Below are positions 4,536 through 23,759 of a stretch of DNA of 58,260 bases, one piece after another; positions within the stretch are counted from its first letter, which is position 1, and each line of letters starts with the position of its first letter. Made by a program: the position numbers and the translations under genes. Location: positions 1 to 58,260 of the forward strand of contig JBFLYA010000003.1 of assembly GCA_040757115.1 (NCBI GenBank), written 5' to 3'. The DNA comes from a bacterium (GTDB lineage: Bacteria; UBA9089; CG2-30-40-21; SBAY01). The notes below the pieces were generated by a model. The model made no database searches, had not been told where the DNA came from, and saw only the letters and a program-made list of their open reading frames with translations.

Positions 4536-4541
4536 CTTTCT

Positions 4542-5489: not shown

Positions 5490-5492
5490 CTT

Positions 5493-7499
5493 TTATACAC
5501 CTCTTATTTGTGCTTCTAATTCCCTTATTTTTTGTCTTAAGGGAGCATTAGTCTTTGTTCTTTTGACTTCTTCTATAATTTCACTCAACCATTGAGGCAT
5601 TGTAAGAGGAAGCATACTGTAAAAATTAGTTGCCTCAAGAGCCAAAAGCGATTGATAATCATAGATAAGGGGGTCATGATTTGGTTTAAAATCAGCAATA
5701 GCATTTTTCAAATGGTCTATATTTACCTTTTTGGTCTTTGCATATTCAGCCGCGCGTCTTACAATGACCTCAATAGCGGAACCAGTCAAACCTTCTGTCT
5801 CAACGGTTACAAAATCAAAGTCAATACCATCATCATATTCTATTTTTACCTTCTTTTCCATCACTTCAAAGATACTCTTTCTATCCTCCTTATCTGGGGG
5901 TAAAAGGGGTATAACCTTATCAAATCGACGAAGCATAGCCTGGTCCAGAACATCTGGTCGATTAGTTGCGGCTACCCAAATTATCTTACCTCGATTAGAA
6001 TTATCCGACATAAATGTTAATATCTTAGCAAAAATACGCTGGCTTACTCCACTATCTCGACTATCTGTCATCCGAGAACCAAAAGCTTGATCAACTTCAT
6101 CTACAAATACTACTACTGGTGACAGTGCTAGTAAAATATCAAATACCTTAGAAAGATTCCGTTCACTTTCTCCTACCCACATACTGCGTATGTCCTTCAT
6201 TTTCACTAAGTTCATCGTTGCCTCTTTAGCCAGTGCTTCTGCCAGAATAGTTTTACCAGTCCCTGGAGGACCAACTAACAAAATTCCCTTAGGAAGTAAT
6301 TCTACTATGTCTAAAAGGATATTATCGTCTTTTATCTCTTTTTTTTGCTCAAAATATCGTTTTATATCAGCCACTTTCTCCTCAAGAAATTTCTTCACAT
6401 GGTCCAAACCACCTATCGAGTCAAAGCCATGTTTTGGCTCCATCACTTCTAACAAGTTATTACTTTCTGCTTCAATAATTTCCTTCTTCTTCTCTTTCAC
6501 TAAATCATAACTTACATTAATTCCCAGAGCTTTAGCAGAGTTAAAAAGATAATCTAAATCTTTAAGGTTAAACCCTGCGGTTATTTCAGCCAGTCCTTCC
6601 AATGTAGTCCCTTCTTCTAATTTTATTTTAGGCTTAATTTCTTCTAATGCCTTCACAACCTCTTCTAAAGTGGGAATATCTTCACCTGGCACCTTTTCCT
6701 TCTCTGATGTTGAAACTTCTTCTGAAGAGGGAGAACTTTTTTCTTCTGGCATATTTTTCTTTTCAGAGGAAAGAAATCTTAGAAATGCCAATCGTGTTTT
6801 TGCATCTGGTCGATCTATTTTAATAGCCTTACAGCCATAATGAGAATAGATGTCTGGATGGACTGCACCAAGATTTGGAGTTACTAATAGAACTATGTTA
6901 CCAGTATCCTGTCTAATCTTATAGTTCGAAGCCCACCGCTGTAATGTCTCAATCAAGATAATAGCATCTTTATCTTGAGTCCCTGCAGGCAGCAATTTAT
7001 CTACATATTCGATAACGATGGCAGTGCGATGTTCCTTTTGTAACAGAAGATGTTCAAAATTAGGAAAGACTTTCTTAGGGTCTCTGAATGTTTCATCCTG
7101 GGATTGCCTAGCTTGCCTCCCAAATCCTTCAACAACTTTGCGTGACTCTGTTGAAAGGTTTTTTAGTCTTTCTTCATCAGATTTTTCTGGTTCTTCTTCC
7201 TCACCAGCACCAAAAATAGGTAGAGCAAATCGTTTAAGTATGTCTTTTTTTGGCACTAAACCCTCTGGATAGGTAATTCCAGCTGACTGGCAATAGAATA
7301 AGATAATATCATACTTTAATGCCAGTCGCATGGTTAAAAATTCACGCAAGGATAATTTACCTTTTCCTGGCACATAGATAAAATCATTCACATTAAAGTA
7401 GAGAAGAAACATATGAGAGGCATTAGCATTATAGACATTATTAAGTTCTTCCAGCCAGGCAGGAGATTCCCAATTCTCTATAATATTAGTTTCTGACAT
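5493..7499 (-). CDS. AAA+ ATPase, classical clade (Cdc48/Ycf46-like, degenerate N-terminal module plus intact C-terminal module)
   Basis: FDSIGGLD, Walker A GPPGTGKT, pore loop MWVGESE, Walker B VFVDEVD, SRH AATNRPDVLDQAMLRRFD. Confidence 0.92.
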   Translation of the reverse strand: MSETNIIENWESPAWLEELNNVYNANASHMFLLYFNVNDFIYVPGKGKLSLREFLTMRLALKYDIILFYCQSAGITYPEGLVPKKDILKRFALPIFGAGEEEEPEKSDEERLKNLSTESRKVVEGFGRQARQSQDETFRDPKKVFPNFEHLLLQKEHRTAIVIEYVDKLLPAGTQDKDAIILIETLQRWASNYKIRQDTGNIVLLVTPNLGAVHPDIYSHYGCKAIKIDRPDAKTRLAFLRFLSSEKKNMPEEKSSPSSEEVSTSEKEKVPGEDIPTLEEVVKALEEIKPKIKLEEGTTLEGLAEITAGFNLKDLDYLFNSAKALGINVSYDLVKEKKKEIIEAESNNLLEVMEPKHGFDSIGGLDHVKKFLEEKVADIKRYFEQKKEIKDDNILLDIVELLPKGILLVGPPGTGKTILAEALAKEATMNLVKMKDIRSMWVGESERNLSKVFDILLALSPVVVFVDEVDQAFGSRMTDSRDSGVSQRIFAKILTFMSDNSNRGKIIWVAATNRPDVLDQAMLRRFDKVIPLLPPDKEDRKSIFEVMEKKVKIEYDDGIDFDFVTVETEGLTGSAIEVIVRRAAEYAKTKKVNIDHLKNAIADFKPNHDPLIYDYQSLLALEATNFYSMLPLTMPQWLSEIIEEVKRTKTNAPLRQKIRELEAQIRGV

Positions 7500-7502
7500 T
7501 AA

Positions 7503-9239
7503 TTAACTCCTTTCTTTTTCTTGAGGACTAATTTGTTTAACCATAGAGGTAGGAATAGTTTCTTCTAAAAGTTCTACAAAATGTGGGGAGATACAAACTT
7601 CACCTTGGGTATCTACCTCTACAATCCCTTTACCCTCAATCGAAAAAGTTTTGATAACCTTATTTTTACCAATAGTTTCTATTTCTATCTTATCATAGCC
7701 CATTTGGTGGAGTGATAGTAATATTCTATCTACTACTATATCTTGCAAAGTTCGCTCATCTTGAATAAGTTGTGGAATTGTTCCTGTTCCTTCTTTTACG
7801 CCAGTTACCTTATAATTTAAGTATATGCCTCGATTTTTTAACTCATCAAAAAAATGCTGTAACTCGGGTAGACAGGTAGCCTGACCTGCCTCATCGGATT
7901 TAAACCCATCGAGGTCATACAAAATTTCTCCCTCCGCGGAAACATTGACCCTAAAAATTTTCTCTCCTTTTATAGCTTTGTAATATATTCGCTCTTTTAT
8001 TTCAGACTTTTCAATTTCTGTATATTTCATTATTTGAAATACCTCTTCTATCTTTTGACTAATATGTGCCTGAAGATTTTGATTGAGGGTATTAATTGCC
8101 TTTTCTTTAATCTGATTAAATTTCTCCTGAGCATATTTTGCCTGGGACAGAGCATCATCTAATCTACCAGTGCGAAACATCTCTTGAGCTTCAGCTAAAG
8201 TCTGTTTTGCTTCCTCAAAGTTGTCTTTCAAAGTAAGTCTAACAATCTCTCTAACAGATTGAAGTGACTCTTCTTCACTCTTTTCTAACATTTCTATAAT
8301 AATCTCAGCATCTTCTACAGCTTTATCAAAATCTATTTGAATCTGGTTTGTTCTTTTTTCCCAGGTTTCTTTTTCTATCCTCAACCTATTACTTAAGTTA
8401 GACAAATGTTTAGTTATATCTTCCATGTGCTGCCAAACTATCGTGTAATTCTGGTCTTTCCAATTAGTGGTTATATCTCTAATCTCATCTTCTATTCTGC
8501 TAATCTCCTGTTGATTATTAGAAGGAAAAGAACCTGCAATTGTCTCTGTTTCTAATAAATCCAACTCCGCTTTCATTATCATTTCATGAATTTTCTCTGT
8601 CTGCTGATAGTGCTGTTCCTGAAGAACATAAGCTTTCTTCATTGTCTCTTGAAGCACACTTAAGGCTTCTTCTGCAAGACTATAAGAAGATGGAAATTCT
8701 CCTCTCTCTAAATTCTCTTTTCCTCGCTGTTCAATATTAACTATCCTATCTATTGCCTCTTTTTCTACAAATGGCAATCTCTGAACTTTTTCTAACATAA
8801 AATCCACTTCTTGCCAATTCATTGAAATTATTTGTTTAGCTGTTCTTTCCTCAGCCTCCTGGCCTAAAAATTTCAATTCTTCCCTAAATTGCTTTTCTTG
8901 CTGGAGATATTTCTGTCTTCTTTGTTCAATCTCCTGTTGCTCTTTAATAGCCTGTTTATGAGTCTGAAATCGTAATTTTTTATCTTTTCCTCGCTCTTTT
9001 TTGATAACTTCTGCTTTTTTCTGATGTTCTTTAATTAATTTAGTAACTCTCTGTTTTTCTTTCTCAAGCATCTTTTTTACTTTTTCTCTTCGTTTCTGAG
9101 CTATCTCTTGAGCGGTGTTATTAACTACTTCATATAACTTACAACCACAAAAAACCAATCCTTTGGCACCATAATAAACTCCGCTTACTGCTGCCCCTAA
9201 ACAAATTCCTATTACATCTGCTCCCCCTGCACTACTCAT
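7503..9239 (-). CDS. Long coiled-coil protein with C-terminal DUF2997-like segment
   Basis: E/K/Q-rich helical body; FRVNVSAEGEILYDLDGF...TCLPELQHFFDELKNRGI near the C-terminus; AAGGAG RBS; 3 bp from the ATPase start. Confidence 0.7.
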   Translation of the reverse strand: MSSAGGADVIGICLGAAVSGVYYGAKGLVFCGCKLYEVVNNTAQEIAQKRREKVKKMLEKEKQRVTKLIKEHQKKAEVIKKERGKDKKLRFQTHKQAIKEQQEIEQRRQKYLQQEKQFREELKFLGQEAEERTAKQIISMNWQEVDFMLEKVQRLPFVEKEAIDRIVNIEQRGKENLERGEFPSSYSLAEEALSVLQETMKKAYVLQEQHYQQTEKIHEMIMKAELDLLETETIAGSFPSNNQQEISRIEDEIRDITTNWKDQNYTIVWQHMEDITKHLSNLSNRLRIEKETWEKRTNQIQIDFDKAVEDAEIIIEMLEKSEEESLQSVREIVRLTLKDNFEEAKQTLAEAQEMFRTGRLDDALSQAKYAQEKFNQIKEKAINTLNQNLQAHISQKIEEVFQIMKYTEIEKSEIKERIYYKAIKGEKIFRVNVSAEGEILYDLDGFKSDEAGQATCLPELQHFFDELKNRGIYLNYKVTGVKEGTGTIPQLIQDERTLQDIVVDRILLSLHQMGYDKIEIETIGKNKVIKTFSIEGKGIVEVDTQGEVCISPHFVELLEETIPTSMVKQISPQEKERS

Positions 9240-9282
9240 TGGTATTCTCCTTTAAACTACATCTTGATTATTCAACAAATTT

Positions 9283-9529
9283 CGACCTGTGCGGTTAGGT
9301 TCAAATAAAATGCAAGAAGCAGATATTCAATGCTACAAACAGGTCGCTCCTACGGAGCTACAAACATATTGCTTTTGCGGAATGCTACAAACAGATTGCT
9401 CCTACGGAGCTTTATTTATATTAGCTCCAGAGGAGCGGTCTGTTTGTAGAAAGATTATATCCTTACAACATAATTAGCTCCAGAGGAGCGACCTGTGTAT
9501 TCTTTTTCTCACCCTAACCGCACAGGTGG
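9283..9529. mobile_element. 247-bp MITE carrying four REP-like palindromes
   Basis: TIRs CGACCTGTGCGGTTAGG / CCTAACCGCACAGGTGG; 8-bp target duplication ACAAATTT (9275-9282, 9530-9537); internal gctcctacggagc / gctccagaggagc hairpins. Confidence 0.88.
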
Positions 9530-9536
9530 ACAAATT

Positions 9537-10127
9537 TTATAAAGCTCCTTTTGTTGCCTCTTGAGAAATCCTCATCCTGTTCTTCAAATTTTTAACTTCA
9601 TCATTTAAGTCTTTGATTTGCTTTTTCAAGTTTTCATTTTCTGTCTTCAGTTTGTTACACTCATCTACAAGTTCATTATTGACCTTCTGTAAACTCTCCT
9701 TATCTGCATTCACTTTCTTAAGTATTTCTTCTATTTCTTTTACCTTATCTGCTTTCTGGTGATTTTGTTCTTCACTTTGTTGAAGTTTTTGAGATAAGAT
9801 TTCATTCTCCTTTGCTTTTTGAGAGATTAAACCTTCCTTTTCTTTTAATCTCCGCTGAACTTCATTAAGTTCAAATTGAAGGCTATTTATTTCTTGCCTA
9901 TGTTGTGTCTGTAGTATAGTAATCTGACTATTTAAAGAACGATTTTGAGTAGTTAGATTTTTTATTTCAGCCTTATAGCGTTCTATTTCAGTATGTAATT
10001 GTCGAATCTCTTTTTCCTGTCCTCCTAATAAGAGCGATGGGGTCCTACTCATATTAGAAACAGGAGTTGGTTTTCTTTTTCTTCGTACCCGTATATCTTT
10101 TATTTTCACACTCGAACTATTTTGCAT
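9537..10127 (-). CDS. Coiled-coil protein
   Basis: 196 aa; basic N-terminus followed by continuous heptad-like sequence; GGAG RBS. Confidence 0.75.
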   Translation of the reverse strand: MQNSSSVKIKDIRVRRKRKPTPVSNMSRTPSLLLGGQEKEIRQLHTEIERYKAEIKNLTTQNRSLNSQITILQTQHRQEINSLQFELNEVQRRLKEKEGLISQKAKENEILSQKLQQSEEQNHQKADKVKEIEEILKKVNADKESLQKVNNELVDECNKLKTENENLKKQIKDLNDEVKNLKNRMRISQEATKGAL

Positions 10128-10170
10128 GTGATTATCTCCATTAAATAGAACGGCATCGTTCCACCCACAT

Positions 10171-10305
10171 TTATCCTCCTATGAAATTATCCAATTTGGT
10201 GATTGTAACCTTAGCTACCTCACTCCACTTACCCTTTCTCTCATTATAGTCAATAGCTCTAATTCTATACTCAAGGATTTTCGTCAATCTGTTACCTCTG
10301 CCCAT
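10171..10305 (-). pseudogene. 44-codon ORF paralogous to the last FN3-like strands of the JAB protein, ending -FIGG
   Basis: MGRGNRLTKILEYRIRAIDYNERKGKWSEVAKVTITKLDNFIGG; 10201-10282 is a diverged direct repeat of 10571-10652. Confidence 0.5.
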
Positions 10306-10315
10306 TCTGCCCTAC

Positions 10316-12208
10316 TCATTTGTTTTCTTCTTTCAAACCTTCATTTCTCCTTACCCCCTCTTCACCACTATCGACATTCTGTAACGACTGGTCTTCCTTA
10401 TTTACATCTGATGGATTAGACATTTCTTCTTTTTTTACACTTGGTTGAAGTGGTTGTTGAGGTGAACCCTCATCCTTTTTTACGGTTGGACCTTTTTTTT
10501 TATCTTCCTTTTCTCTCTTTCTTGTGTTTGTATTCCAATTATTTTGCTGGCCCTTCTTTCTTTCTTCTTGGATTGTAACCTTAACCACCTTACTCCACTC
10601 CCCCTTTTCATCATTACAGCCAATAGTTCTAATTTTATACATAAGGTTTTTCTTTTGTTTTGGTGACCACTCATCGCTATATTCTTTTGAATTCCACGAA
10701 TATATATCTTTTAGTTTTTTAAAATCCTCCTCTCCCACTTTTACCTGAATTTCATAATATTTAACGGAACTATCTAAATTATCATTCCATTTCAAAATCA
10801 CAATTTTGCCATCTTTTTCCAGCTCAGCGTTGAATCCCGTAGGTGCTTCTAGTTTAGGTGGTATTGGTTCCTGTGGTATTGGTGACGAAAACTCTTTCGT
10901 ATAAGATTTATCATTTTGTAACTTGAGTGTTAAAGTATATTTGTAGTCTTTTCCCGGTAAGACATCTGTATCTTTATACTGCCCATTAATTATCTCTTGA
11001 TGACTAAGGGTTAGTGATTTATCATGCTCATTAGATGATGTTCTCTTTAAAATTCCGTCTTTGATTTCTTTTTCATCTACTCCTTTCAACTCCCATTTTA
11101 CAACTAATCCATCTTTAGATAGTTCGGGGCGCAATATATCAAATATATCATTAGAGACTGGATTACTTAGATTATCCTTTTTTTCTTGAGGGAATTCAAC
11201 AGGCCGTTCACTAGGGATTTCAACAGGTTGGAACATAAGGAAGATAAGGTAGATAAAGATGACAGCCATTACAATCATTCCACACCAAAGGATTATTTCC
11301 ATCACATCCTGGAAAGTAATTTCCTCCAGAGATTCAATAAGCTCACCCCAAATTTTTTTAATTGGATTAGGTTTTTTAGGACGGTATTGAGGTTCAGTTT
11401 TCTCATTAGATTGCCGATTTTGTCCTTTTGTAGGAATATTATTAACTCTGCGAGTTGAATAGTTATCCATGCAAGGGGAATAGTCATCCAGATAAAATTC
11501 AGCTCTACATTCTGAGTCTAACCTATCATTTTCCCAGATAAAGTATCCTGCTGTCTTCTTTTTAGGTTGAATAACCAAAGCTACATGCCAGGGCTGCATA
11601 AAATTGGTTTTCGCTAACTCTCGGTCAGGAGGAGAGAGTGAGATATCGTGACTTGGATGACTATGATACCAACCCACTTGTTTAAGATGTGAATACTTCT
11701 CTTGTTGTAGGTTTTTTACCCTATTTTTTTCTTGAGGGGTAAAGACAAAGTGGTCGTATCTGGCATTGTCATACTTCATAGGAATGGCTTCCTCAATATG
11801 AACCATATATGTTTCTCTTCCCATTTTCTTTACTGGAGGAGGCACATACCCTAACAAAATTCCTCCTGTTTCATTAGGAATTTTTTCTTGAGATTGAAAA
11901 AAGATTTTTTTGTAGACCCTCTTCACACAAAAAATTTCTACTGGAGAATTGGATACCTGCCAGGGAATCGTCTCGCCACTTATCTCTGTCTCCTTACTAT
12001 TTCGTATCCCTTTTATTCGTAGATTAGTAACATTTTGGTTCTCTTTCTCTTTACCCAATTCTTTTTCTTTCTCAGGGGGAGGTGACATAGCTGATTGAGA
12101 AGATACTTGACTCTGTCTGGGAATAGAAGGTTGTATAGATCCTATTTTATGTTCCCACTGTTCTAATCTTCTTTGTAACCAATTTTCTTCCTTTTCCTTC
12201 AAGTCCAT
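10316..12208 (-). CDS. JAB/MPN+ (Mov34) metallopeptidase with TM helix and C-terminal FN3-like domains
   Basis: NETGGILLG and JAMM motif GWYHSHPSHDISLSPPD (HxH-x7-S-x2-D); TM ILWCGMIVMAVIFIYLIFLMF; YKDTDVLPGKDYKY and APTGF...VILKW...YKIRT...GEWS. Confidence 0.88.
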   Translation of the reverse strand: MDLKEKEENWLQRRLEQWEHKIGSIQPSIPRQSQVSSQSAMSPPPEKEKELGKEKENQNVTNLRIKGIRNSKETEISGETIPWQVSNSPVEIFCVKRVYKKIFFQSQEKIPNETGGILLGYVPPPVKKMGRETYMVHIEEAIPMKYDNARYDHFVFTPQEKNRVKNLQQEKYSHLKQVGWYHSHPSHDISLSPPDRELAKTNFMQPWHVALVIQPKKKTAGYFIWENDRLDSECRAEFYLDDYSPCMDNYSTRRVNNIPTKGQNRQSNEKTEPQYRPKKPNPIKKIWGELIESLEEITFQDVMEIILWCGMIVMAVIFIYLIFLMFQPVEIPSERPVEFPQEKKDNLSNPVSNDIFDILRPELSKDGLVVKWELKGVDEKEIKDGILKRTSSNEHDKSLTLSHQEIINGQYKDTDVLPGKDYKYTLTLKLQNDKSYTKEFSSPIPQEPIPPKLEAPTGFNAELEKDGKIVILKWNDNLDSSVKYYEIQVKVGEEDFKKLKDIYSWNSKEYSDEWSPKQKKNLMYKIRTIGCNDEKGEWSKVVKVTIQEERKKGQQNNWNTNTRKREKEDKKKGPTVKKDEGSPQQPLQPSVKKEEMSNPSDVNKEDQSLQNVDSGEEGVRRNEGLKEENK

Positions 12209-12218
12209 ACTTCACCTC

Positions 12219-13079
12219 TTATATTTCAAGACTTTGCTTTTTAGTAGATTTCTCTGATGAATCCTTGTGCAATACTATTTTGACCCTTTTCTCTCCTAGT
12301 TTTAAAGGAAGTGTCAGCCCTACTCTACTTAAAGGAAAGAAGTCAGGATGTTTCTCTTTATAAGCCAAATACCATTCTTTGGCTTTAAGATTCATCCTCG
12401 GGTGGTCATCATCGAGGTTTACAGACCAATATTGTATCAATTTACAACACTGGACACAGGCATAAATCAAGTTACTGTCCAGTGGATACCATTCGAAGAA
12501 TAAGCATACATCCCTTTTCTTATCCATATTGGCATTAGGATGAAAAATATCGGTTACCGCGATTACAACTGGTCGAAGAATAGGATAATCTCGTGACAAT
12601 GTTAATCTAAGAATATGTTCATCTTCCTTTATTATTGGTTCTTTCTTATCGTCTAATCCACTAATTCCCTTTATCTTCATCAAAATAATTTCAATCTCTC
12701 CTGGAGATAGCCCCTTCACTCTTAGATGTTCAGGATTAGCCGTTGCTAACCGTAATAATCCAGCCCGGTCTTCTTGAACCCGGTTCGTGTTCTCATAGGC
12801 AGCTACTTCTGATGGGTCATATACTGAAATAACACTTCCTGGTGGGACACCCATGTTTGACAAACTATTATCAAGAAAGAGCTCCTCTTGATTCCAGAAA
12901 ACAGAGTACTGAACCTCTTGTCCCTTTTCATCATAGAGACGGATAGGATATTCTGTTCCTTGAGAGGTTCTGATAAGGTCTCTCAAGACATCTATCAAAG
13001 ATGTCTCATCATCCACTTCTACACTATACTCCTGCTGACCTTTTGGTGTAGTTACTACAAAAATAAAATTATTAATCAT
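12219..13079 (-). CDS. Ubiquitin-like (beta-grasp) domain fused to E2/UBC domain
   Basis: aa 1-94 YSVEVDDETSLIDVL...LDNSLSNMGVPPGSVISV; E2 motifs DYP..RP, IFHPN(180-182), Cys192, W and MNLKAKEWY. Confidence 0.85.
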   Translation of the reverse strand: MINNFIFVVTTPKGQQEYSVEVDDETSLIDVLRDLIRTSQGTEYPIRLYDEKGQEVQYSVFWNQEELFLDNSLSNMGVPPGSVISVYDPSEVAAYENTNRVQEDRAGLLRLATANPEHLRVKGLSPGEIEIILMKIKGISGLDDKKEPIIKEDEHILRLTLSRDYPILRPVVIAVTDIFHPNANMDKKRDVCLFFEWYPLDSNLIYACVQCCKLIQYWSVNLDDDHPRMNLKAKEWYLAYKEKHPDFFPLSRVGLTLPLKLGEKRVKIVLHKDSSEKSTKKQSLEI

Positions 13080-13110
13080 TAGTGATACACCTCCTTCAGA
13101 AGATTAGACT

Positions 13111-14226
13111 TTAACTTGACTTTTGAACGGAATAAGCAGGAAAATCCTCTTCAATCTTCCCCATTTCTCTCATTAAGAAGATTATCAAGATACCATTTGT
13201 TGGCTCCAAATCCAGAAGAGTTTCCGTTTTCTTTATGCTGAGTTTTCTTTCTGCTATTCTCTTTATCAAAGCGGGATTAATTGGTAATACGCAGTAGTTA
13301 TTGCCCACCTCTTTTATTTCAGGGATAAAAACTGGTAATAAATCTACTATTGATACATCTGCTGGCAGCCGTCCTGAATATAGTTTCAACTGAGCAAACA
13401 GAAATGAAACAGCAAATACTGTAACGATAGGTCGAAGAACTAATTCTTCACAAGGAAAGATATTCTGTTCGTAGAGTCGCTTTTCGTTGTCTATCCAAAT
13501 TCTTTTCTCTGGATGAACTAACCGATAATCTGTTATTCGAGATGCCTCTCCCTTATTCCATACTTCATTTGTTAATCTTAGGAAGTCAGGATGGTTAAAT
13601 ATTTGACTTACGGGCTGAAGACAATCTACATCAATCTCCACTCCTCCTTTTTCTCCAAATGTAGTTATCTTCATTTTAATAGACATAGGGTATGCAGTAA
13701 TACTCTCCCCTTCTTCTAAAACAAATGGAGTAGGGTCTTGTGCTTGAAGTAATTGTTTTCTACCCTTAACTAAAATGAAATTATTCCACTTAACATCTTG
13801 TTGTAGATATTGATACAGAGAATAGATAGGATACCTTCCATCCGTAGGGAAATATAATGAAAATTTTTCCCCCTGCCTATCTTTGCTAGTCCAATTAAGG
13901 ATCTCAACTACATCAGGGCTTTTAATCAATAGAAGATTTTCATGATGTCCCCTTAATTGTTCAAGAGAGAGTTTTAGATTTTTAACAATACCCCAGGAAT
14001 TACGGTTGGGAGAAAAAACAGCTACATTAGTTTGCGCTTCTCTCCACTTAATTTCAGCTAAAAGTTGTGTTTTTATGTCTTTCAAAGAGGTATTTGATGG
14101 AAACCCTCTTCTTTGTCTAAAAAGTGATGGTTGACCTTGCAACAACTCAATCCACTGGCACAGTTTATCTTCTTGTATTATCTTCCAATTACCTTCATAG
14201 GTGTATATATTAGGGAATAAATTCAT
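13111..14226 (-). CDS. Probable tandem ubiquitin-like (beta-grasp) repeat protein
   Basis: Up to four ~80-aa units: FPSNTSLKDIK..LSLEQL; FPTD..LEEGESITAYP; IDVDCLQPVSQI..RLYEQNIFPCEELVL; LPADVSIVDLL..TETLLDL. AGGAGG RBS. Confidence 0.55.
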   Translation of the reverse strand: MNLFPNIYTYEGNWKIIQEDKLCQWIELLQGQPSLFRQRRGFPSNTSLKDIKTQLLAEIKWREAQTNVAVFSPNRNSWGIVKNLKLSLEQLRGHHENLLLIKSPDVVEILNWTSKDRQGEKFSLYFPTDGRYPIYSLYQYLQQDVKWNNFILVKGRKQLLQAQDPTPFVLEEGESITAYPMSIKMKITTFGEKGGVEIDVDCLQPVSQIFNHPDFLRLTNEVWNKGEASRITDYRLVHPEKRIWIDNEKRLYEQNIFPCEELVLRPIVTVFAVSFLFAQLKLYSGRLPADVSIVDLLPVFIPEIKEVGNNYCVLPINPALIKRIAERKLSIKKTETLLDLEPTNGILIIFLMREMGKIEEDFPAYSVQKSS

Positions 14227-14250
14227 TTCTTATACCTCCTCTTCTTTCCT

Positions 14251-14922
14251 TTAACTCTTCGTCTTTTTATAACTTCTGAGATTAATTTTGCACTCAGGAT
14301 TGAGGCATCTCCAGCGATTAGGTACTCCCCAACAATCTATACATAAGATAGTATCACAGTTAGGGCACTTTCTTAAGTCCAAGCTCTGTCCATCGCTTCC
14401 ACTATTTCTTCGACAGAGTGGACATATATAGTTAGGTATCAATAGAGTATTACCAAGTGCCTCTGGTATAGGTTCAAATTGAGTAGATGGAATAGCTGTT
14501 CTGACTACTTTATCTTTTTTACCATACGCTGGGAAAAATATAATCGTGAGCACCCCTATTATTACTCCTACCGCACTTGCTATTAAAATCAGAGAATGCT
14601 CATCAATGAATTTGTTTAATTCTACTTGAGAGATTTGTAGAATCAAATAAAAGAACAATAGAAAATTTCCTATTCCACAACCTATACCTTGCACTAGAAC
14701 AGTTAGAAGTCTCCACCTTTGAACCGACCTCAGTAGAAGAGCAATAACACATCCTACTACAAATTGGAGAATACCAAATACTATCCATGGAACCTTCACC
14801 CAAAAGAGTATCCCTCCTAATATTGCACCAAATAAGCTTATCACTCCTGAAACACCAAAATTTCTAATCTTATCCATATTCTGTTTTAATCTTCTCATGA
14901 ACAGATTTTTTCTCCTTTTCAT
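14251..14922 (-). CDS. Multi-TM membrane protein with C-terminal RING-like zinc finger (putative E3)
   Basis: About four TM helices, then C-x2-C-x15-C-x2-C-x4-C-x2-CW-x7-C-x4-C (aa 167-211); ATGA overlap with the E1 stop. Confidence 0.75.
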   Translation of the reverse strand: MKRRKNLFMRRLKQNMDKIRNFGVSGVISLFGAILGGILFWVKVPWIVFGILQFVVGCVIALLLRSVQRWRLLTVLVQGIGCGIGNFLLFFYLILQISQVELNKFIDEHSLILIASAVGVIIGVLTIIFFPAYGKKDKVVRTAIPSTQFEPIPEALGNTLLIPNYICPLCRRNSGSDGQSLDLRKCPNCDTILCIDCWGVPNRWRCLNPECKINLRSYKKTKS

Positions 14923-16187
14923 TCAAAATTCATAACCTCCATTTCATCACCAGTCAATTCATAGAATTTACTTATACTTTTCTTTCCATCATCTATTACT
15001 GCCTCTAAGATATCCAGTTGACGCAGTCCTCCTTGTGTTAAGGTCAAATTAAGGAAATCAACATTTTCATCTAACTCACTCACAGACTTAGCTATTTCTT
15101 GAGGTGTCCCACAATGAGAGCAACTTTGATGCTCTATAAATACATACGGGGATTGATAAACCTTCTCAGTCTTTTTGCAATTAGGACAGGAGGCAGAGAT
15201 TACCAAATCATACCAAAGACTAATTCTTGCCTTCTTACCCAAATCCTTTTTAACTTTTTCAAGTAACTCGCCAATAGTGGTAGAATTAGAGTTAAACTCT
15301 TTAACCTCAATTATATCTTTTTCTGGGATAGGGGAACGAATTTGATGAATAAGACACTTTGGGTTACGGCGACGAGTAAATACTTCCATTTTATGGTCTT
15401 GTGTATCTATGTGAATAATCTTATTCAATAATGGTGTTATTTCTTCATTATTCATTAAAATTTTAAGTCCTTCTTGTACCTGAAGAGCACCAATAAGAGA
15501 AGCCATCATAGGTGTAGAAGGGACAAATCCTCTTTTTTCAGATTCTCTCTCAATTTCAGCGCAGATAACCCCTCTGCCTGTTCCTTTTTCCAGAATCTCC
15601 TTTACCATCTCTGATGATAGAGAACAAGCATAACAAGCTCCTGCAGGAACATCAAAAACTGTTACTGCTCCCCGTAAGACATTAACATCATTTAACCCGG
15701 CATCAATCCATGGTTTTTTAACCCGGATACAGGCATCGTTTAAAATAATACGGGGCAGGCGGCTGTCAAAATCACAAAAAATAAGGTCCATTCTACGCAA
15801 TACTCCTAAACCAAGTGAAGCAATATTCCCATGAAAAGTAGCTACTTTAACATCAGGATTAACTTCCTTTATTTGCTCAGCTACTACCTCTACTTTAGAA
15901 CGGCCAATATCTCTTTGGCGAAACATTATAGACCTGGTTAAATTAGAGAGCTCTATAATTTCCTTATCAACAAGTAAAATCTTACCACAGCCAATAAGAG
16001 CTAAGTTTTTAGCCACTTCATTGCCAATGGCTCCTACTCCACCTATCAGAGCCGTACTATTCTTAACCACACCTTGTTTCCACCCGTGGATAGTTTCTAA
16101 TCTAGAATATCTTTCTTTATCCTCATCCTCTTTATCTTTTTTACTGATAGAAATTTGCTTTTTGAGTGTTTTGGGTATTATATCCAT
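14919..16187 (-). CDS. ThiF/MoeB-family E1-like adenylyltransferase with C-terminal zinc-ribbon extension
   Basis: RYSR, GGVGAIGNEVAKNLAL, ELSNLTR, GRSK, CYAC, putative catalytic Cys in VICAE, PKCLIH, CPNC/CSHC. Start placed at ATG 16187 (GAGG RBS, downstream of the promoter). Confidence 0.93.
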   Translation of the reverse strand: MDIIPKTLKKQISISKKDKEDEDKERYSRLETIHGWKQGVVKNSTALIGGVGAIGNEVAKNLALIGCGKILLVDKEIIELSNLTRSIMFRQRDIGRSKVEVVAEQIKEVNPDVKVATFHGNIASLGLGVLRRMDLIFCDFDSRLPRIILNDACIRVKKPWIDAGLNDVNVLRGAVTVFDVPAGACYACSLSSEMVKEILEKGTGRGVICAEIERESEKRGFVPSTPMMASLIGALQVQEGLKILMNNEEITPLLNKIIHIDTQDHKMEVFTRRRNPKCLIHQIRSPIPEKDIIEVKEFNSNSTTIGELLEKVKKDLGKKARISLWYDLVISASCPNCKKTEKVYQSPYVFIEHQSCSHCGTPQEIAKSVSELDENVDFLNLTLTQGGLRQLDILEAVIDDGKKSISKFYELTGDEMEVMNFE

Positions 16188-16207
16188 TTGTGCCTCATTA
16201 TGAAAAT

Positions 16208-16236
16208 ATTTTACCACAAATTTTGTCCTTTGTCAA
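16208..16236 (-). promoter_or_regulatory. Sigma-70 promoter of the Ubl operon
   Basis: TTGACA-17 bp-TAAAAT with extended -10 TG, 20 bp upstream of the E1 ATG. Confidence 0.8.
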
Positions 16237-16538
16237 CAAAAAATTCGGCTTTTTAAATCCAAAAATTAGTATCGAAAATCTGCTCGATTAGGACAAAATC
16301 ATAAAAATGGACATTGCCAATAGTGATTTTGGACACACTTATCCCACGGAAGGTAATTGAAAGGTCATAAAAGAAAGAACTAAAAAGCAGGTGAGAACTA
16401 CGACGGGTATCATCTTCCATGCCAGGAACCATTATAAAACCATCTCTTAGCCCCTGGCATATTCTTCAGGGCTTCCTCAATATCTTCTTTTTTGGGTGGT
16501 ATCTGAAAATAACGCTAATAGTGAAATTTATGCAGATT

Positions 16539-16735
16539 TGGTGTAAAAAAGAGGATAAGGAGATAAGGGCGATATGGAGATAAGATAATAGAAATAGATT
16601 GAAATTTATAGAAATAGGTAGAAATTGATTGTGGAAAACAACAAATTTCCATAAATTTCTATTAGTTTCTACTAATTTCAATTTTTTTAATAATATCTCC
16701 CTATCTCCTTAATCTCCACATCTCCTTTTCGGACA
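16539..16735. repeat. Long imperfect palindromic repeat element
   Basis: Purine-rich arm (gataaggagataagggcgatatggagat...gaaattt) mirrored by a pyrimidine-rich arm (aaatttc...atctccctatctccttaatctcc); related element at 49688-49810. Confidence 0.6.
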
Positions 16736-16805
16736 CTATTTCAACCTTTATGCTAGATTAAGACACCACCAAATATTTCAATACTCATAAGATTCAAGCA
16801 GTAGA

Positions 16806-16838
16806 GAGAGGCAGGTCTAAAATAAAAACCTGCCTCTC
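16806..16838 (-). terminator. Hairpin downstream of the surface-protein gene copy (terminator or stability element)
   Basis: 11-bp perfect stem ~35 bp after the stop codon; no clear U-tract. Confidence 0.5.
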
Positions 16839-16872
16839 CCAACAATAAAGGGGTGAGAAAAAGGACATATTT

Positions 16873-19800
16873 TTATTCCCAGAATCTACCTGTTAGTCTT
16901 AGGTAAAATCCGCTGGCTGAATAACTATCATCAAGTATCTCACCATCTTTGTATTCGATGAGGTTATATCCTAAGACAAATTTAAAGTGGCTGTTAAATC
17001 CAAAACCTAACTCTAAGATAGGATTTAGCTTATAGTCATTGGTCAAATGTTGATGTAGAATTCTATACCCGCCGGTTATATCCAACCTTTCGTTAATATT
17101 ATAAGTTAATCTACCCATTATAAGGTCAATATGAGAAATAATATCCTCTACCTCTATCCTCCTCATCGCATACTTTCCCAAAAGGCTCCATTTATTAGTT
17201 GGAACATAGATAGATTCTAAGGAAGCAATAGCACTTTTATTACTAAACTCATATTTACTCAATAAATTGAATTTATTAGTCTGAGGAGGTCTGTAGGCTA
17301 ATGCAAGTAACAGCTTTGATTCGCAAGAATCAGTTTCTGTCCCGCTATCCTCTTTTTTACTCTTCTCATAGGTATATTTCAAGTAGGTTGTTAATCCGTT
17401 AAGGAATTTCTGTTTTAAGTCTGCAATTAGTAATGCGGTGGAATCATTAACATTTCCCTCTCTGGAGTAAGAATATTTTAGAGAAGAGGTTAAGTCATTA
17501 TTAATTTTTTGGTTAAGTTCAACTTCTCCTGAAATAGTCTCCTCTTTATCCAATTCTTTCCTAATTTCGTTTTTAGCTGACAATTTTGTTTTATCAGTTG
17601 GTGTAAAGTTCACCCCAAATGAATTAGTGGTGGAATCAGTTATCTTCCCTGCACCAATCTCTTTTTCTGCATTATTTGCCGCGGAAATGACTATCTTTGG
17701 ATGTGGTGAATAATCTATTCCAATAGTAGTAGCTATGGATTTGGTCTTCGTCCCTTCGATGTAGTCAGCCTTCCAACCAAGTGCACAGGAGGTATTTAGC
17801 GATACCAATTCAAATAGCTTAGTTATTGCTCCTATGGTAAGGTGATGTTCTCTAAGAAGATGTTTGCCATGTGCCATTTTATTAGTTAAATCATATTGGA
17901 TAGAAGGTGATACCATATCATATTCTGATGTTAATTTGAGGCTAATGTCATGAGTTATCGTATCTAAATCACGATTAATAAAATTATCAGAATCTGTAAG
18001 GCTGTATTTTAATCCAAAATCATGCCTACCTATTGAACCTCTATCTCCTAAAGTAAACATCTGTTTACGGCTCTTGTGAATTTGGTTACTCACCTTATTT
18101 TCTTCTTGAAAATTTGCAAAGAATGTAGAATTATCAAGCTCCTGTTTAAACCCCAGTCCAAATATATCAGTTTTTGTCTTATTTTTCTTGGGCTCATTAG
18201 TAGTTATCTTCTTTTGAACATATAAGGCTTTATCAGTCATTAGCTTGTAATCAACTCGTGAGCCGTATTCTCGGATATCCTTTTGAGTAGTAAGATTAGT
18301 GATGTCATAAAACTCTGGTCCATACTGGTTAAAATCGTCTCTTTCTTTATCAGCAGTAGCCTCAATTTTATTAGAGAAGTTAGCTCCAATTTGATGATAA
18401 AAGGTCTTAACCTTGCATCTATCGTTTGAGTGAGAAGATAAGGTTTCTATAAAAGAGGCAGAGTTGTTAACTTTTGGATTTAATAGTTCTAAGTCTCCAT
18501 CGGTCTGGGCATATTCACCCTTAATAGTAAATTCTTTGCAGGGATTAAAAGAACTATCTAACCCATAAAGGTGGTAGTCAGTTGGAGACTGTTCCTCTTT
18601 GATATAAGTTGTACCTACTTCTAAGCTCTTATGTGGTTTTGTTACTCCACGAAACCCATAAATGGCATGTTTGTAATCTGCACCTATGGGAATATATTCA
18701 TAAATCACTACAATATAATATCTGATTCCTCCACTTTCGATTAAAGGGACAGGCTCTTCAAATATCAACCTTCCTGTATCATAATCCAGGGAATAGTCCT
18801 TATCTTTTTCTTTCTCTATAGTGGCAAAAACTTGTAAGTTTTTCTCATCCCGGGTTTGGATTTTAATCTTTTCACTTCCATCCACAATTGGGCAATGTGT
18901 AAGATAGTAAGGGCCACAAATTCCCCTCCCAGGTATATCATCCCGAGCACTAACTTGTCTTGTAGAGGCACCAAATACAGTAATCCTGGAATTGGCGATA
19001 TGTTTTTCTATCTTTGCTCCGGTAAGACTTCTATGATATGTTGATAATTTATTTTCTCCTAATGCGGTTGAATAATCGCCATAAAGAAGCTCTAAATCCT
19101 TAGATTGTAATTTTAGAAAGATAGGGTCAGAAGATGGAGTGTTATTAACGACTTTACTATCATCACCATAGATTGGATAGTAATCATCTGGATTAGCCGG
19201 AGAGGATAATTTATCCTTGCGAGTTTTCTTAGTATCAAGTGAAGTAGTAAGTTGATATTTATCTTTTAACTTAGTTTTTAAGTAAAAGGCTAAGCATCCT
19301 TTATATCTTGCACTATTTCCATACTTTTTACGAAATGCCTTTATATTTCCAGTGACCGTATCTTCTTCCATTTCAAGCTCTGCTAATCCAATAAAAACAG
19401 GCTTATCTGTGTAAGTAGCAGAGTATCTTTTATCCGCTGCCCTTAAGATACCAAAGTCTAACTTTGCCATTCCATGAGGAGAAAGATCAATAAATTGTGG
19501 CTTAGTAGTACTTAAAGAATACTCATCAGATAAGGTATTTATGTCAATCATTAGCAGGTGACGACCTGGTTTAACCGCTGGAATTGAGTATCTACCTTCA
19601 TCATCAGTAATTACACTCATCCCATTTTCCATAAGGATGCTTACATTACCAATTCCCGCCTCTCTATCTTGCTGTATCCCATCACCATTAGTATCCTCAT
19701 ATACCTTGCCAATTATAATCCCATGCTCTCTAAATACTCCATCTTTAATCCTGACTATTGCAAATACATTAGTTACTACTTTCTCCCCTTTTTCAGCAGT

Positions 19801-20252
19801 GCCCGATACCTCTGCTAAGTTCTTTTGGTCACCAGATTCAGCATCAATCCCAACTAACACCTTGTAAGTTAGTATCTTTTCTTCATTAATTGGGAAATCG
19901 CCAATCTCCCAGGTAAAAGGATTTTTACCTATCGGGTCTTTAAAGCAGTCAGAATTTAACCTACTTGTCCCTTTGATATACTTAAAATTATATGGGAATT
20001 TATCTACTATTTTAACCTGATTTATCTTCCCATAGCCAATATTCTTAACCTTGATGGTATAAGTTATTATATCACCAATCTGAGCGGTTTTATCACTTGC
20101 CGTTTTAATAACCAATAAAGAGGTATTGTGGTCAAGATAGATATCCTTTGTAAGTGTCTGTCCTGAAATCAAATGGAAGGTAGTAGAGGTCTTTGGATAA
20201 TAATAGTCTGCCCTAACTGTAAGATAGTAATATCCTGCGGCTAAATTACTAA
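16873..20252 (-). pseudogene. 5'-truncated duplicate of the large surface/outer-membrane protein gene at 36959-41254
   Basis: Colinear with 36959-40338 at constant offset 20086; homology stops at 20252; lacks the signal peptide and about the first 305 codons; frame otherwise open. Confidence 0.88.
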
Positions 20253-20259: not shown

Positions 20260-20644
20260 GAGAGCGTTGCAAATGTCTTTTAGTTATGGTGCGGGTTTGG
20301 GGTGAGTTTTGAGTGATAAAAGATGCCAAAGCGATAAAAAAGAGATAATTTGCTTAGTTGACATCAAAAAGAGGAGGTGTTATATAGTTGTAAGTTCAAA
20401 AAAGAGAAAGCTTTTGTGTTTTCTGGTAATGTATCTATTTTTGCAACAACCAGGTAGCGGAAAGGCTCCACTGGAAGTAATTATGCCCCAGGTTAAAGAT
20501 ATGCCCTTTTATCGACTGGTTAATGACCCTCTGGGTTGTCTTTTGGGACTCCAAAATGTCAAGAGAAACAAAAAGATGGCAAGAAATGAGGTAAAGCAAT
20601 GCCTGGGACCATAGATATAGCCTTAAGTCCTACGCAACGCTCTC
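20260..20644. mobile_element. 385-bp element with perfect 11-bp terminal inverted repeats
   Basis: GAGAGCGTTGC (20260-20270) / GCAACGCTCTC (20634-20644); no target duplication; sits at the rearrangement junction. Confidence 0.6.
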
Positions 20645-20660
20645 TTTGGATTTTTTTCAA

Positions 20661-20776
20661 AAGAGCCGAATTTTTTGTTGACAAAGGATAAAATTTGTGG
20701 TAAAATATCTTCACAATGGGCACAAATGGATATAATACCCAAAACACTCAAAAAGCAATTTCCTATCAGTAAATGA
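20661..20776 (+). promoter_or_regulatory. Inverted copy of the E1 promoter and first codons
   Basis: Reverse complement of ~16140-16253 with few differences; TTGACA 20678-20683, TAAAAT 20701-20706; mini-ORF MDIIPKTLKKQFPISK* at 20726-20776. Confidence 0.92.
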
Positions 20777-20805
20777 GTAGTAAATTATTGTTCTGGAGAT
20801 AATTA

Positions 20806-22014
20806 ATGAATCAAGAAACGATTTTTATACAGTTTTTACATGATAAAGCACGTAATAGCATTATTTTAAATAATGGATTTTCGAATGTTTATAATGAATG
20901 TAAAAATGCGGGAGATTTTTTTTGGAGTAAACATTACTCTGAAATTTCAGCAATGGAAAAGAATTGTTTACCGATTAAGAATGGTAAAGCATATATTAGC
21001 GCCTTTTATTATGATCATTTAATGCAGTCCTATATATGGGCCAGACAATATCCTGATATTCGGTTTATAGCAGGAGGACCGGCAGTTCGGTATGCTAATT
21101 TTACCAGTCAAAATTTACCTTACAATTTAACCTTATCAAAAGGATTAGCAGAAAAAGTGATTTTTTTAAAGGACAAACCGAACAAAACTTGGGATATAGA
21201 TATACCGGTAAATTTAATCAAAGGGAAGAATATCATTCGTTTTGCATATAATATTGATCGTCGTTGCTATTGGGGAAAATGTATTTTTTGCGATGGATAT
21301 AACAAAGATTGGGAATCGCCTTTAAATAATAATATCGATAATCTCAAAATTCCTAAATTAAACGGAAATATTAATAAAATCGTCCGTCTTAACATACCAT
21401 CAATTACACCAAAATTTTTAAAAAATGAAGTTCCAAAATTACCCCGGCGTAATGATGTGATCTTTGATTTTTTTATCCGTGCAGGAAAGGAGATTTTACC
21501 GGTGATTACTCAAGTGCTTGAAGATTGCGCTAATGGCATCGGTCCTGCACCGGAGCAATTTCGCTTTGTGATCGGTGTAGAATTCCCTTCCGATAGAATG
21601 CTGCAATACATGGGGAAAGGAACTTCCAGGGCACTCTTATTGAAATTACTTTCTTTAGCAGAGCGATATAAGATTTCAGTTGGTATTCCATTCATTTTTG
21701 GTTGGAATAATCTAACTCTCAAAGATGTCCAAGAAGCAGTTGACTTTATAAAAAAAGTTGAACAAATGGAAGCTCTGGAAACCTTTAGTACAGGTTTTAC
21801 TTTAGAAATTCATCCTAATTCACCGGTTTTTAAACAATTTAAAACAAGCGAACTGATTCCGATCAGGCGTAAGATATTTAATAATGGGGAATGTAGAATC
21901 AAGCTCAACAAAGAGCAACAAGAACTGAATGAGGCGGTCAGAAGTTTTTATTTACATAGTAAAATCAATTCGTATTTATATGATAGCGAAATTGGTAATA
22001 TCAATTATGAATAA
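20806..22014 (+). CDS. Radical SAM protein, probably cobalamin-dependent class
   Basis: RFIAGGP (B12-domain-like), CYWGKCIFC, GVEFPSDRMLQYMGKG, FIFG. Confidence 0.75.
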   Translation: MNQETIFIQFLHDKARNSIILNNGFSNVYNECKNAGDFFWSKHYSEISAMEKNCLPIKNGKAYISAFYYDHLMQSYIWARQYPDIRFIAGGPAVRYANFTSQNLPYNLTLSKGLAEKVIFLKDKPNKTWDIDIPVNLIKGKNIIRFAYNIDRRCYWGKCIFCDGYNKDWESPLNNNIDNLKIPKLNGNINKIVRLNIPSITPKFLKNEVPKLPRRNDVIFDFFIRAGKEILPVITQVLEDCANGIGPAPEQFRFVIGVEFPSDRMLQYMGKGTSRALLLKLLSLAERYKISVGIPFIFGWNNLTLKDVQEAVDFIKKVEQMEALETFSTGFTLEIHPNSPVFKQFKTSELIPIRRKIFNNGECRIKLNKEQQELNEAVRSFYLHSKINSYLYDSEIGNINYE

Positions 22015-22547: not shown

Positions 22548-22636
22548 ATTCTTCTTACTAAAAAATTTCGACCTGTGAAAGAGGAATATTTTGATCGTGG
22601 TTAGTATAAGAAGGGGGATAAGGGGATAAAGGGGAT

Positions 22637-23312
22637 ATGGAGATATCAAAAGAATATCAAGAAAATTTACTTAATGAGATAATAATTCAATGTATTATTA
22701 AGGTACACCAGACACTGGGTCCAGGTTTTCTGGAAAGTATTTACCGCAGGGCAATGGTAATTGAACTTATAAAACAGGGATTGAGAGTTGAGACAGAGAA
22801 AGAAATACTAATCTACTACGAAGGAGAAGAAATTGGGAAACACAATTTAAAACTTATAGGAATTGATATTTCGGATGAAGCTATTCATATTGCCCGAACT
22901 TCCTATCCGCATATTGAATTTTTAGCAGGAAATATTCTGGAGTTACCGTTTGGACAAAATTACTTTGATATTGTTTTTGGCAATTTTATTTTGCATTTAT
23001 TTTCATATGAATTAAGACATAAAATGCTTGAAGAATGCCATCGTGTTTTAAAACAGGATGGTATTGCAATATTAAGTGTAGCTTCGGTACATGATCCGGA
23101 TTACGGTATTGGCAGAGAGGTTGAAAAAAAATTACTTCGTTAATTCACGAGGAGTTACCAAGTTTTATTATTCAAAAGCAGCAGTATATGATGAATTTAA
23201 ACTGTTTAAATTGATTGATATTATGGATATTGAAGAGCATCATGAACATGATTTCCCTCATTCGCATAAAAGCTTTTTAATAATTGCTCAAAGAGAAGGT
23301 GTTAAAATATGA
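22637..23312 (+). pseudogene. Chimera: GxxExxY protein N-terminus fused to the C-terminal part of a class I methyltransferase (further frameshift in A-run at ~23124-23131)
   Basis: VHQTLGPGFLESIY...IGKH, then IGIDIS...LPF...FDIV...HRVLKQDG; the tail resembles the methyltransferase at 27477. Confidence 0.8.
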
Positions 23313-23675: not shown

Positions 23676-23690
23676 TCAGTGGCTGAACAG

Positions 23691-23759
23691 TTACTTTGAT
23701 GTCCTATGTATTCCCATGATGGCATCAATAATCTTTTCTGTGATGTGATTTATTTCCAT
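23691..23759 (-). pseudogene. GxxExxY protein N-terminal fragment
   Basis: MEINHITEKIIDAIMGIHRTSK*, lying between two CTGAACAGTTAC repeat ends. Confidence 0.6.

Follow-up and report, generated by a model that had tools for sequence, protein, structure and literature searches.

A polytopic bacterial membrane protein with an all-cysteine RING-like finger, encoded in an E1/E2/JAB operon, as a candidate membrane-anchored E3

Contig JBFLYA010000003.1 of the bacterial genome assembly GCA_040757115.1, analysed here over 58,260 nucleotides (nt; hereafter the window), encodes a membrane protein of 223 amino acids (aa) with eight cysteines in a C-terminal finger, which we call the finger protein. Its gene lies directly downstream of a gene for an E1-like adenylating enzyme, in an operon that also encodes an E2 and a JAB peptidase. 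We consider it somewhat better than an even chance, about 55%, that the finger protein acts as a RING-type E3 anchored in the membrane and draws charged E2 to the membrane's cytoplasmic face. It is the positional, and probably also the evolutionary, counterpart of the small Prok-RING_1 E3 proteins. An earlier note on this open reading frame (ORF) had described its helices and its cysteine pattern, and both observations are confirmed; its interpretation of the protein as a bacterial analogue of membrane E3s is, as a whole, partly supported. The features of the gene are as follows.

14251-14922, minus strand: finger gene, 223-aa membrane protein with a C-terminal eight-cysteine finger (ORF list and homologues)
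14797-14853, minus strand: hydrophobic helix 1, residues 24-42 (Kyte-Doolittle mean 2.15)
14731-14787, minus strand: hydrophobic helix 2, residues 46-64 (mean 2.64)
14653-14709, minus strand: hydrophobic helix 3, residues 72-90 (mean 1.85)
14536-14592, minus strand: hydrophobic helix 4, residues 111-129 (mean 2.9)
14290-14424, minus strand: predicted binuclear finger Cys167-Cys211, ligands C167, C170, C186, C189, C194, C197, C206 and C211 (pattern, alignments and AlphaFold 2 (AF2) models)

The finger follows the pattern C-x2-C-x15-C-x2-C-x4-C-x2-C-W-x7-C-x4-C, exactly as previously described at 14290-14424. Ligands 1 and 2 enclose Leu169, ligand 6 is followed by Trp198 and the last ligand directly by Lys212. 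A loose regular expression for binuclear fingers matches three of the 13,678 open frames of at least 60 aa in the genome, namely the finger ORF, a 70-aa small RING ORF beside the other E1 of the genome, and a CNPCSNPC simple repeat. After shuffling of the residues, five trials yielded 0, 1, 0, 0 and 0 matches, and the pattern is more than chance. An exhaustive phmmer search of 1,835,955,588 representatives (expectation value, E ≤ 0.001) returned four proteins: the finger protein itself, P0002 (204 aa, E 5.9e-13), P0004 (232 aa, E 2e-5) and P0003. P0002 and P0004 share the architecture of transmembrane (TM) helices plus finger. P0003, a 555-aa repeat protein, matches residues 160-206 in eight short stretches and lacks the other Cys pairs; it was judged spurious and excluded from every alignment. 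Overall identity to P0002 and P0004 is 27-28%, and all eight cysteines are invariant in both, as are Pro187, Asn188, Trp198, Trp204, Arg205 and Pro209. When a hidden Markov model (HMM) is built from the P0002 and P0004 fingers alone, it recovers the target from 21,140 genome frames at E 1.7e-16. The conservation of the ligands and this recovery indicate that the finger gene is real and under constraint.

The family is small. It comprises three singleton clusters among about 15 billion proteins, with P0002 and P0004 found in Logan only, and the gene occurs in none of the 24 other genomes of the phylum. Word-based protein searches recovered the finger protein itself from 481 candidates and, with the three-member alignment, three already known members from 8000. 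Related-locus searches with that alignment found none in metagenome contigs or genome contigs, and tblastn of the finger protein gave no match among plasmids. Among sequencing runs, one DNA run, which may be the source, was found to contain the sequence, and no RNA run was listed. A precomputed Pfam accession, PF26037.1, is attached to P0002 and P0004 but occurs neither in the Pfam library nor in the papers searched; a more recent Pfam may therefore already have a curated family for the finger protein.

Four segments have a Kyte-Doolittle mean above 1.8, in agreement with the roughly four TM helices reported before, and the finger lies C-terminal to them. Lysine plus arginine outnumber aspartate plus glutamate by 9 to 1 in the N-tail, by 3 to 0 in loop 2 (RSVQRWR, after helix 2) and by 4 to 1 in the first 15 residues past helix 4, with counts of 1 to 0 in loop 1 and 1 to 3 in loop 3, after helix 3. 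By the positive-inside rule, this bias of basic residues to the N-tail, loop 2 and the C-terminal flank predicts that both termini are inside, and hence that the finger is located in the cytoplasm. A finger outside the cytoplasm, which the earlier note had named as a finding that would tell against its proposal, is thus not what the rule predicts.

The ORF at 14251-14922 encodes 223 aa on the minus strand. Its first ATG (14922-14920) overlaps the TGA of the E1 gene (14921-14919) in the sequence ATGA, which makes translational coupling to E1 plausible. The claim of coupling stands to that extent only, as the public record (P0001, 215 aa) prefers the second in-frame ATG, at residue 9 (14898). 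GGAGG lies 13 nt 5' of the first ATG and AGGAG 13 nt 5' of the second.

The surroundings of the gene are those of a ubiquitin-like conjugation operon, with E1 (ThiF), E2 and JAB beside the finger gene.

14919-16217, minus strand: E1-like adenylating enzyme, 432 aa (Pfam ThiF, E 4.8e-46)
13111-14226, minus strand: 371-aa protein, possibly with several ubiquitin-like domains (a lead only)
12219-13079, minus strand: E2, 286 aa, with HPN at 180-182, Cys192 and a 92-aa N-terminal extension (similarity to the canonical E2)
10316-12208, minus strand: JAB/MPN peptidase, 630 aa, with one hydrophobic helix at 305-323 (Prok-JAB, E 8.2e-8)

The gaps between E1, finger gene, 371-aa gene, E2 and JAB are -4, 24, 31 and 10 nt. 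The same genome holds a second, canonical operon (L012, contig C414, 4625-8208) that encodes E1, a 70-aa RING protein, a ubiquitin-like protein (Ubl), E2 and JAB. The 70-aa protein passes Prok-RING_1 (31.4 and 30.9 bits against a cut-off of 29.1), the Ubl is YukD-like, 89 aa long and ends in Gly, and the E2 passes UQ_con; pdxJ-like genes adjoin this operon. The canonical E1 is matched at E ≤ 1e-57 in all 11 relatives from the same family or order (G001-G011), and a small RING ORF adjoins E1 in the ten whose loci were compared (G005 left out). The window E1 is 37% identical to the canonical E1, the window E2 31% identical to its counterpart (E 1e-11) and the window JAB likewise 31% (E 2e-18), and the gene order of the two operons is the same. 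Shared order and similarity together put the finger gene in the slot of the small RING gene and the 371-aa gene in the slot of the Ubl. By this position and by leads from the ESM Atlas, the 371-aa protein is a candidate modifier: its Atlas features score 0.84-0.86, and its structure rows, which are leads only, are mostly multi-ubiquitin proteins with TM scores of 0.23-0.39. It has no Pfam or NCBIfam match, and BLASTP against the canonical Ubl gives E 0.18.

The likeness of the finger to prokaryotic RING family 1, with Cys in place of the usual His, is upheld by alignment. The best Pfam match of the finger is Prok-RING_1 (PF14446; E 0.032, profile positions 5-47 of 54). MAFFT, run without manual help on three TM-finger and eight small RING sequences, brings all eight ligands of the 11 sequences into common columns, and with them the Pro that follows ligand 3 and the Trp that follows ligand 6. 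The fifth ligand is Cys in the three TM-finger proteins and His in the eight small RING proteins; a basic residue follows the last ligand in two of the three and in all eight, respectively. The finger thus has the C4-H-C3 spacing of Prok-RING_1 and its Trp after ligand 6, with Cys in place of His, and the gene has the E1/E2/JAB neighbourhood.

The earlier note took Trp198 to match the E2-contacting position of RING fingers, and this is borne out for prokaryotes more than for eukaryotes. In the MAFFT alignment the prokaryotic small RING proteins have a single conserved Trp, the one immediately following ligand 6. The E2-contacting Trp of RING-H2 domains sits a few residues further on, and Val stands opposite the Trp column in the EL5 RING-H2 alignment (E 0.021, not significant), so that the match to the eukaryotic position is not strict. 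In the small RING protein of the archaeon Caldiarchaeum subterraneum, the substitutions W58A (of the "conserved tryptophan"), I30Q and R69A (of a conserved K/R) impaired ubiquitylation, according to the text of PMC5654768. We infer that W58 and Trp198 share a column; I30 lies between ligands 1 and 2.

Predicted structures favour a RING. An AF2 model from the three family members has a mean predicted local distance difference test score (pLDDT) of 67.1. Compared with 48,161 Protein Data Bank (PDB) representatives, its ranks 1-7 are all E3 RING domains, those of Ark2C, praja-1, RNF13, RNF165, RNF12, Deltex 2 and RNF38 (Z 4.3-3.7). The 11-sequence alignment gave a model with a pLDDT of 74.7 (all five models at least 61), in which a beta-hairpin leads into a short helix at ligands 5-6. 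RING E3 domains occupy ranks 1-9 of its matches (Z 5.9-4.1, root-mean-square deviation 2.8-3.5 over 56-65 residues), and a Z of at least 5 is reached by only four of the 48,161 chains, each of them a RING-H2 E3. Re-ranking of Foldseek's 558 best chains again places RING E3 domains at ranks 1-12. On this reading the eight cysteines would bind two zinc ions in a RING-type cross-brace.

Several results weigh against this reading. Membership in Prok-RING_1, for which the earlier note had proposed an HMM search, was not upheld: the finger scores 14.6 bits, below the gathering cut-off of 29.1 for PF14446, a six-frame genome scan with this profile at E ≤ 1 does not report the target, and the family HMMs fail to detect each other's members. 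An HMM of seven small RING orthologues matches 39 frames at E ≤ 10, the target not among them, and an HMM of the TM-finger homologues ranks the small RING protein 20th, at E 5.7. Direct comparison is little better, with E 0.056 and a probability of about 1% in hhalign against the small RING alignment and, in BLASTP, a match of 16 residues only (E 0.002). Such statistics do not prove homology to Prok-RING_1. PDB sequence and profile searches with the finger gave nothing significant, the profile matches being a mixture of the Stac3 C1 domain (0.013), EL5 RING-H2 (0.021) and PHDs (0.03-0.1). The spacing of ligands 3-6 (C-x2/4-C-x4-C-x2-C) is one that we take to be compatible with PHD-like fingers too. 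As for the models, neither of them has a Foldseek match in the PDB below E 0.3, every VIA Z score is below 8, the range that the tool labels a possibly common arrangement, and the alignment behind the better model itself contains small RING proteins, which may bias it. Finally, the link between the finger and E1/E2 comes from one genome, and among the operon candidates for a modifier, the 371-aa protein and the N-terminal part of E2, none with a C-terminal Gly was identified.

The finger may instead be a binuclear treble clef without E2 activation that tethers or regulates another component at the membrane, for example as a partner of the membrane JAB or as a binder of modifier or substrate. 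The JAB of the operon is itself membrane-anchored, and Prok-RING_1 membership falls short as described above. Not all prokaryotic RING fingers reportedly act in Ub-type pathways, and other prokaryotic treble clefs are said to pair with membrane peptidases. We regard this explanation as rather unlikely, since a collinear paralogous operon has the small RING E3 where the finger gene stands here, E2-binding RING-H2 domains top the fold searches, and the finger retains the Trp as well as a basic residue behind its last ligand.

Less probable again, in our judgement quite improbable, is a non-RING arrangement of the eight cysteines, either as two zinc ribbons in sequence or as a PHD/C1-like module, that takes no part in conjugation, the gene being only co-transcribed. 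The best Foldseek rows, none significant, do include PHD fingers, zinc-ribbon ribosomal proteins and TFIIH p44, zinc-ribbon rows and the mixture of C1, RING-H2 and PHD matches recur in the PDB profile search, and P0002 and P0004 have weak Pfam matches to ZZ, PHD_NSD and IBR. Against it, among the matches of the 11-sequence model, C1 domains begin at rank 23 (Z 3.3) and PHDs at rank 42 (Z 2.9), and PHDs are absent from the top 50 of the re-ranking. The predicted beta-hairpin and short helix at ligands 5-6 correspond to the RING core, and the structural alignments cover 60-65 residues, which implies that both zinc sites are spanned. A PHD or double zinc ribbon was the outcome that the earlier note had named as fatal to its proposal; the ranking of predicted folds argues against it without reaching exclusion.

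Returning to the preferred reading, a membrane-anchored RING-type E3, we infer from sequence and models that the finger binds zinc and E2 and acts as a ligase, and the identities of modifier and targets below are to be read in the same way. The finger protein would span the inner membrane with four helices, its two termini facing the cytoplasm, and its C-terminal 45-residue stretch would bind two zinc ions. E1 would activate a ubiquitin-like modifier, which would be transferred to Cys192 of E2. Recruited by the finger, charged E2 would modify targets close to the membrane on its cytoplasmic side, and the membrane-anchored JAB peptidase would process or remove the modifier. The AAA+, FHA and vWA proteins encoded downstream might then act on, or regulate, the modified targets.

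The cluster continues in the same direction, and from vWA to E1 ten co-directional genes on the minus strand are all intact.

9537-10127, minus strand: coiled-coil protein, 196 aa (coiled-coil type matches only)
7503-9239, minus strand: 578-aa protein without family (nothing above cut-off)
5493-7499, minus strand: AAA+ ATPase of classical CDC48/PAN/FtsH type (Pfam AAA, E 2.5e-35)
4542-5489, minus strand: FHA-domain protein with hydrophobic segments at 39-57, 72-90 and 165-183 (FHA, E 3e-9)
2697-4535, minus strand: vWA-domain protein with hydrophobic segments near the N-terminus and at 351-369 (VWA, E 1.5e-16)

The gaps between the genes for the 578-aa, AAA+, FHA and vWA proteins are 3, 3 and 6 nt, and the finger protein, JAB, FHA and vWA, four proteins out of ten, appear to be located in the membrane. 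In the E2 protein, the E2 domain comprises residues 100-245 of 286, and its HPN..C stretch aligns to UBE2G1; the N-terminal 92 aa have no family match and no similarity to the canonical Ubl or to the 371-aa protein. A word-based protein search with E2 matched one of 541 candidates, itself; tblastn of E2 gave no match among plasmids, and a related-locus search with E1 among genome contigs found no locus. In JAB, the hydrophobic helix follows the catalytic domain and precedes a C-terminal part of about 300 aa without family (a weak SusE match, E 0.037). A membrane-spanning, deubiquitinase-like JAB with a possible extracytoplasmic domain is unusual. The AAA+ protein matches the NCBIfam models for CDC48 (1.5e-45), PAN (9.7e-43) and FtsH (3.7e-37), all below their cut-offs. 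Its only Walker A, at 410, belongs to its one AAA domain (406-530), and its N-terminal 340 aa are without family.

PADLOC named no defence system beyond its generic E1-E2 and JAB models. A promoter and terminator scan gave 53 sites against a shuffle mean of 48.4, not above shuffles. The best sigma-70-like match (11/12, with an extended -10 TG) at 16208-16236 on the minus strand overlaps the listed GTG start of E1, which may therefore begin instead at Met, residue 11, although the scan as a whole is not above chance. Further along, an ORF at 20806-22014 on the plus strand (402 aa) has the motif CYWGKCIFC and a weak Radical_SAM match (E 0.0014, 19.2 bits against a cut-off of 29.5); radical SAM genes beside FtsH ternary systems are mentioned in the text of PMC7159879.

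The whole cluster from vWA to E1, about 15.5 kb, is bracketed by a pair of direct repeats.

1283-1385, strand not assigned: 103-nt direct repeat, left copy, 99% identical to the right copy
16771-16873, strand not assigned: 103-nt direct repeat, right copy, spaced 15488 from the left copy

A sister species of the same genus (G001; 100% complete, 770 contigs) matches the flanks, with window 16785-20252 at 92-98% and window 40-791 at 94%. Between them, window positions from about 800 to 16500 are unmatched in this species, short multi-copy repeats excepted, and the cluster segment occurs in one of 25 genomes of the phylum. Its GC content shows no difference from the surroundings. Features of this kind fit an accessory island, mobile or prone to recombination, which is the usual setting of conflict systems. 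That the cluster is a decaying or silent island, and the finger gene without present function, would accord with its repeat flanks, its occurrence in a single genome of the phylum and the lack of a match in the sister species, and is nonetheless highly improbable, given ten intact genes with tight or overlapping spacing and ligands and helices conserved against distant homologues at 27-28% identity.

Other repeats and duplications were seen in the window. A third copy of the 103-nt repeat, 69% identical, lies at 36695-36797. Interspersed repeats of about 130-270 nt (9267-9538, 16541-16729, 20260-20777, 22560-22746 and 23652-23817) have dozens of copies in the sister species, many at contig ends, and one copy, at 9398-9489, contains GCTCC...GGAGC hairpins. 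They may be elements resembling miniature inverted-repeat transposable elements (MITEs) or repetitive extragenic palindromes (REPs) that break assemblies. The 3' parts of a 1099-aa DUF11/SdrD-B-like ORF (16873-20172) and a 1444-aa ORF (36959-41293) are 95% identical over 300 nt; both match the same region of the sister species (G001:C12) at 92%, which indicates recent paralogues. Adjacent aconitase-family genes (428 and 417 aa) form a tandem duplication with 72-77% DNA identity over about 520 nt (24231-24830 and 25997-26596).

More speculatively, and in our view unlikely, the island as a whole would be a self-contained, membrane-centred ubiquitin-like machine, either a bacterial counterpart of endoplasmic-reticulum-associated degradation or a membrane-surveillance immune system. 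The RING E3 and the membrane JAB would then bracket conjugation at the inner membrane, and tagged proteins of the membrane or associated with the envelope would be extracted or unfolded by the FtsH/Cdc48-type AAA+; in the immune variant, invader proteins would be tagged at the membrane.

RING-type E3s are called rare in bacteria (text of PMC10557695), and the only reconstituted prokaryotic RING E3 is, by the text of PMC5654768, an archaeal soluble one. A polytopic all-Cys RING with its own E1, E2, membrane deubiquitinase and neighbouring AAA+ would offer a simple prokaryotic model for membrane RING ligases, and a polytopic bacterial RING would bear on the question whether membrane-bound ubiquitylation predates eukaryotes. 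The finger family itself is tiny, so that its wider importance hangs on a true relationship to the more numerous ESM Atlas clusters that resemble it in size and architecture.

Among known proteins, the small RING proteins of Prok-RING_1 are the closest to the finger in organization. As in the finger, their third ligand is followed by Pro, the sixth immediately by Trp and the eighth by a basic residue; their eight ligand positions have nearly the same spacing, and their genes likewise lie directly downstream of E1 and upstream of Ubl, E2 and JAB. Unlike these standalone proteins of 70-96 aa, the finger here is fused to four TM helices, has loops of x15 and x7 as against x12 and x5, and has Cys rather than His as the fifth ligand. 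The Caldiarchaeum subterraneum representative, srfp, was needed for ubiquitylation in vitro, and the praja-1 RING is the top fold match reported for it (text of PMC5654768). As with srfp, the praja-1 RING is among the top fold matches of the finger, at rank 2 for the three-sequence model and rank 6 for the 11-sequence model.

The cluster also resembles the FtsH ternary systems, which were described computationally and have a predicted role in biological conflict (Kaur et al. 2020, text of PMC7159879). Those systems combine MoxR, vWA, an FtsH-type double AAA+ and several alpha-helical proteins, with a tri-ligase module of E1, a prokaryotic RING-type E3, a Ubl-E2 fusion and JAB. The window cluster likewise has separate genes for E1, a RING-like finger and JAB, an N-terminally extended E2, a vWA protein, helical proteins and a classical-clade AAA+ whose N-terminal part lacks a P-loop. 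In contrast to these systems, MoxR (AAA_3) is not on the contig, AAA_3 matches in the genome being on contigs C21 and C49 only; no beta-propeller, EAD1 or caspase-like effector was recognised; and the cluster adds an FHA protein and membrane anchors. A membrane-anchored RING is not mentioned in the text of PMC7159879, figures and source data aside.

In eukaryotes, Hrd1, gp78, the PA-TM-RING proteins (RNF13 and RMR1) and MARCH likewise consist of TM helices followed by a RING, as the finger protein has TM helices and then a predicted cytoplasmic RING-like finger, and a Cdc48/FtsH-type AAA+ gene near the finger gene is a further point of likeness. Unlike in these E3s, the finger is all-Cys, and no sequence relationship of finger or membrane part to them was detected; the Hrd1 and MARCH families gave no Pfam match at E ≤ 10, a search in which HMMER filters drop most weak matches. 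As fold matches, RNF13 (Z 5.2), RMR1 (Z 4.6) and gp78 (Z 3.7) exceed the HRD1 RING (Z 3.3 and 2.8, ranks 22 and 44), and the MARCH RING-CH is absent from the fold-match lists. The fold likeness is to RING-H2 domains generally and not to Hrd1 or MARCH specifically; the analogy drawn in the earlier note is one of architecture only.

In bacteria, proteins that combine DUF2628 with Prok-RING_1 form ESM Atlas clusters of 51-182 members, mostly from Bacillota. Like the finger protein they join a membrane-type N-terminus to a RING, and they are near it among Atlas models (TM scores 0.26-0.29, leads only); unlike P0002 and P0004 they show no sequence similarity to it, and none appeared in the exhaustive phmmer search. 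The nearest Atlas feature clusters (0.88, 0.86 and 0.83) are bacterial proteins of 237-276 aa, of which 13% or 33% carry Prok-RING_2 or Prok-RING_1. Given the DUF2628 clusters, membrane anchoring of a prokaryotic RING is in itself probably no novelty. Literature searches, which covered texts and not supplements or figures, found no description of a membrane-anchored prokaryotic RING in E1/E2/JAB operons. The combination of polytopic anchor, all-Cys ligands, membrane JAB and AAA+, FHA and vWA partners appears to be undescribed in the texts searched; in kind, the finger protein probably belongs with the prokaryotic RINGs of E1/E2/JAB operons, which are known.

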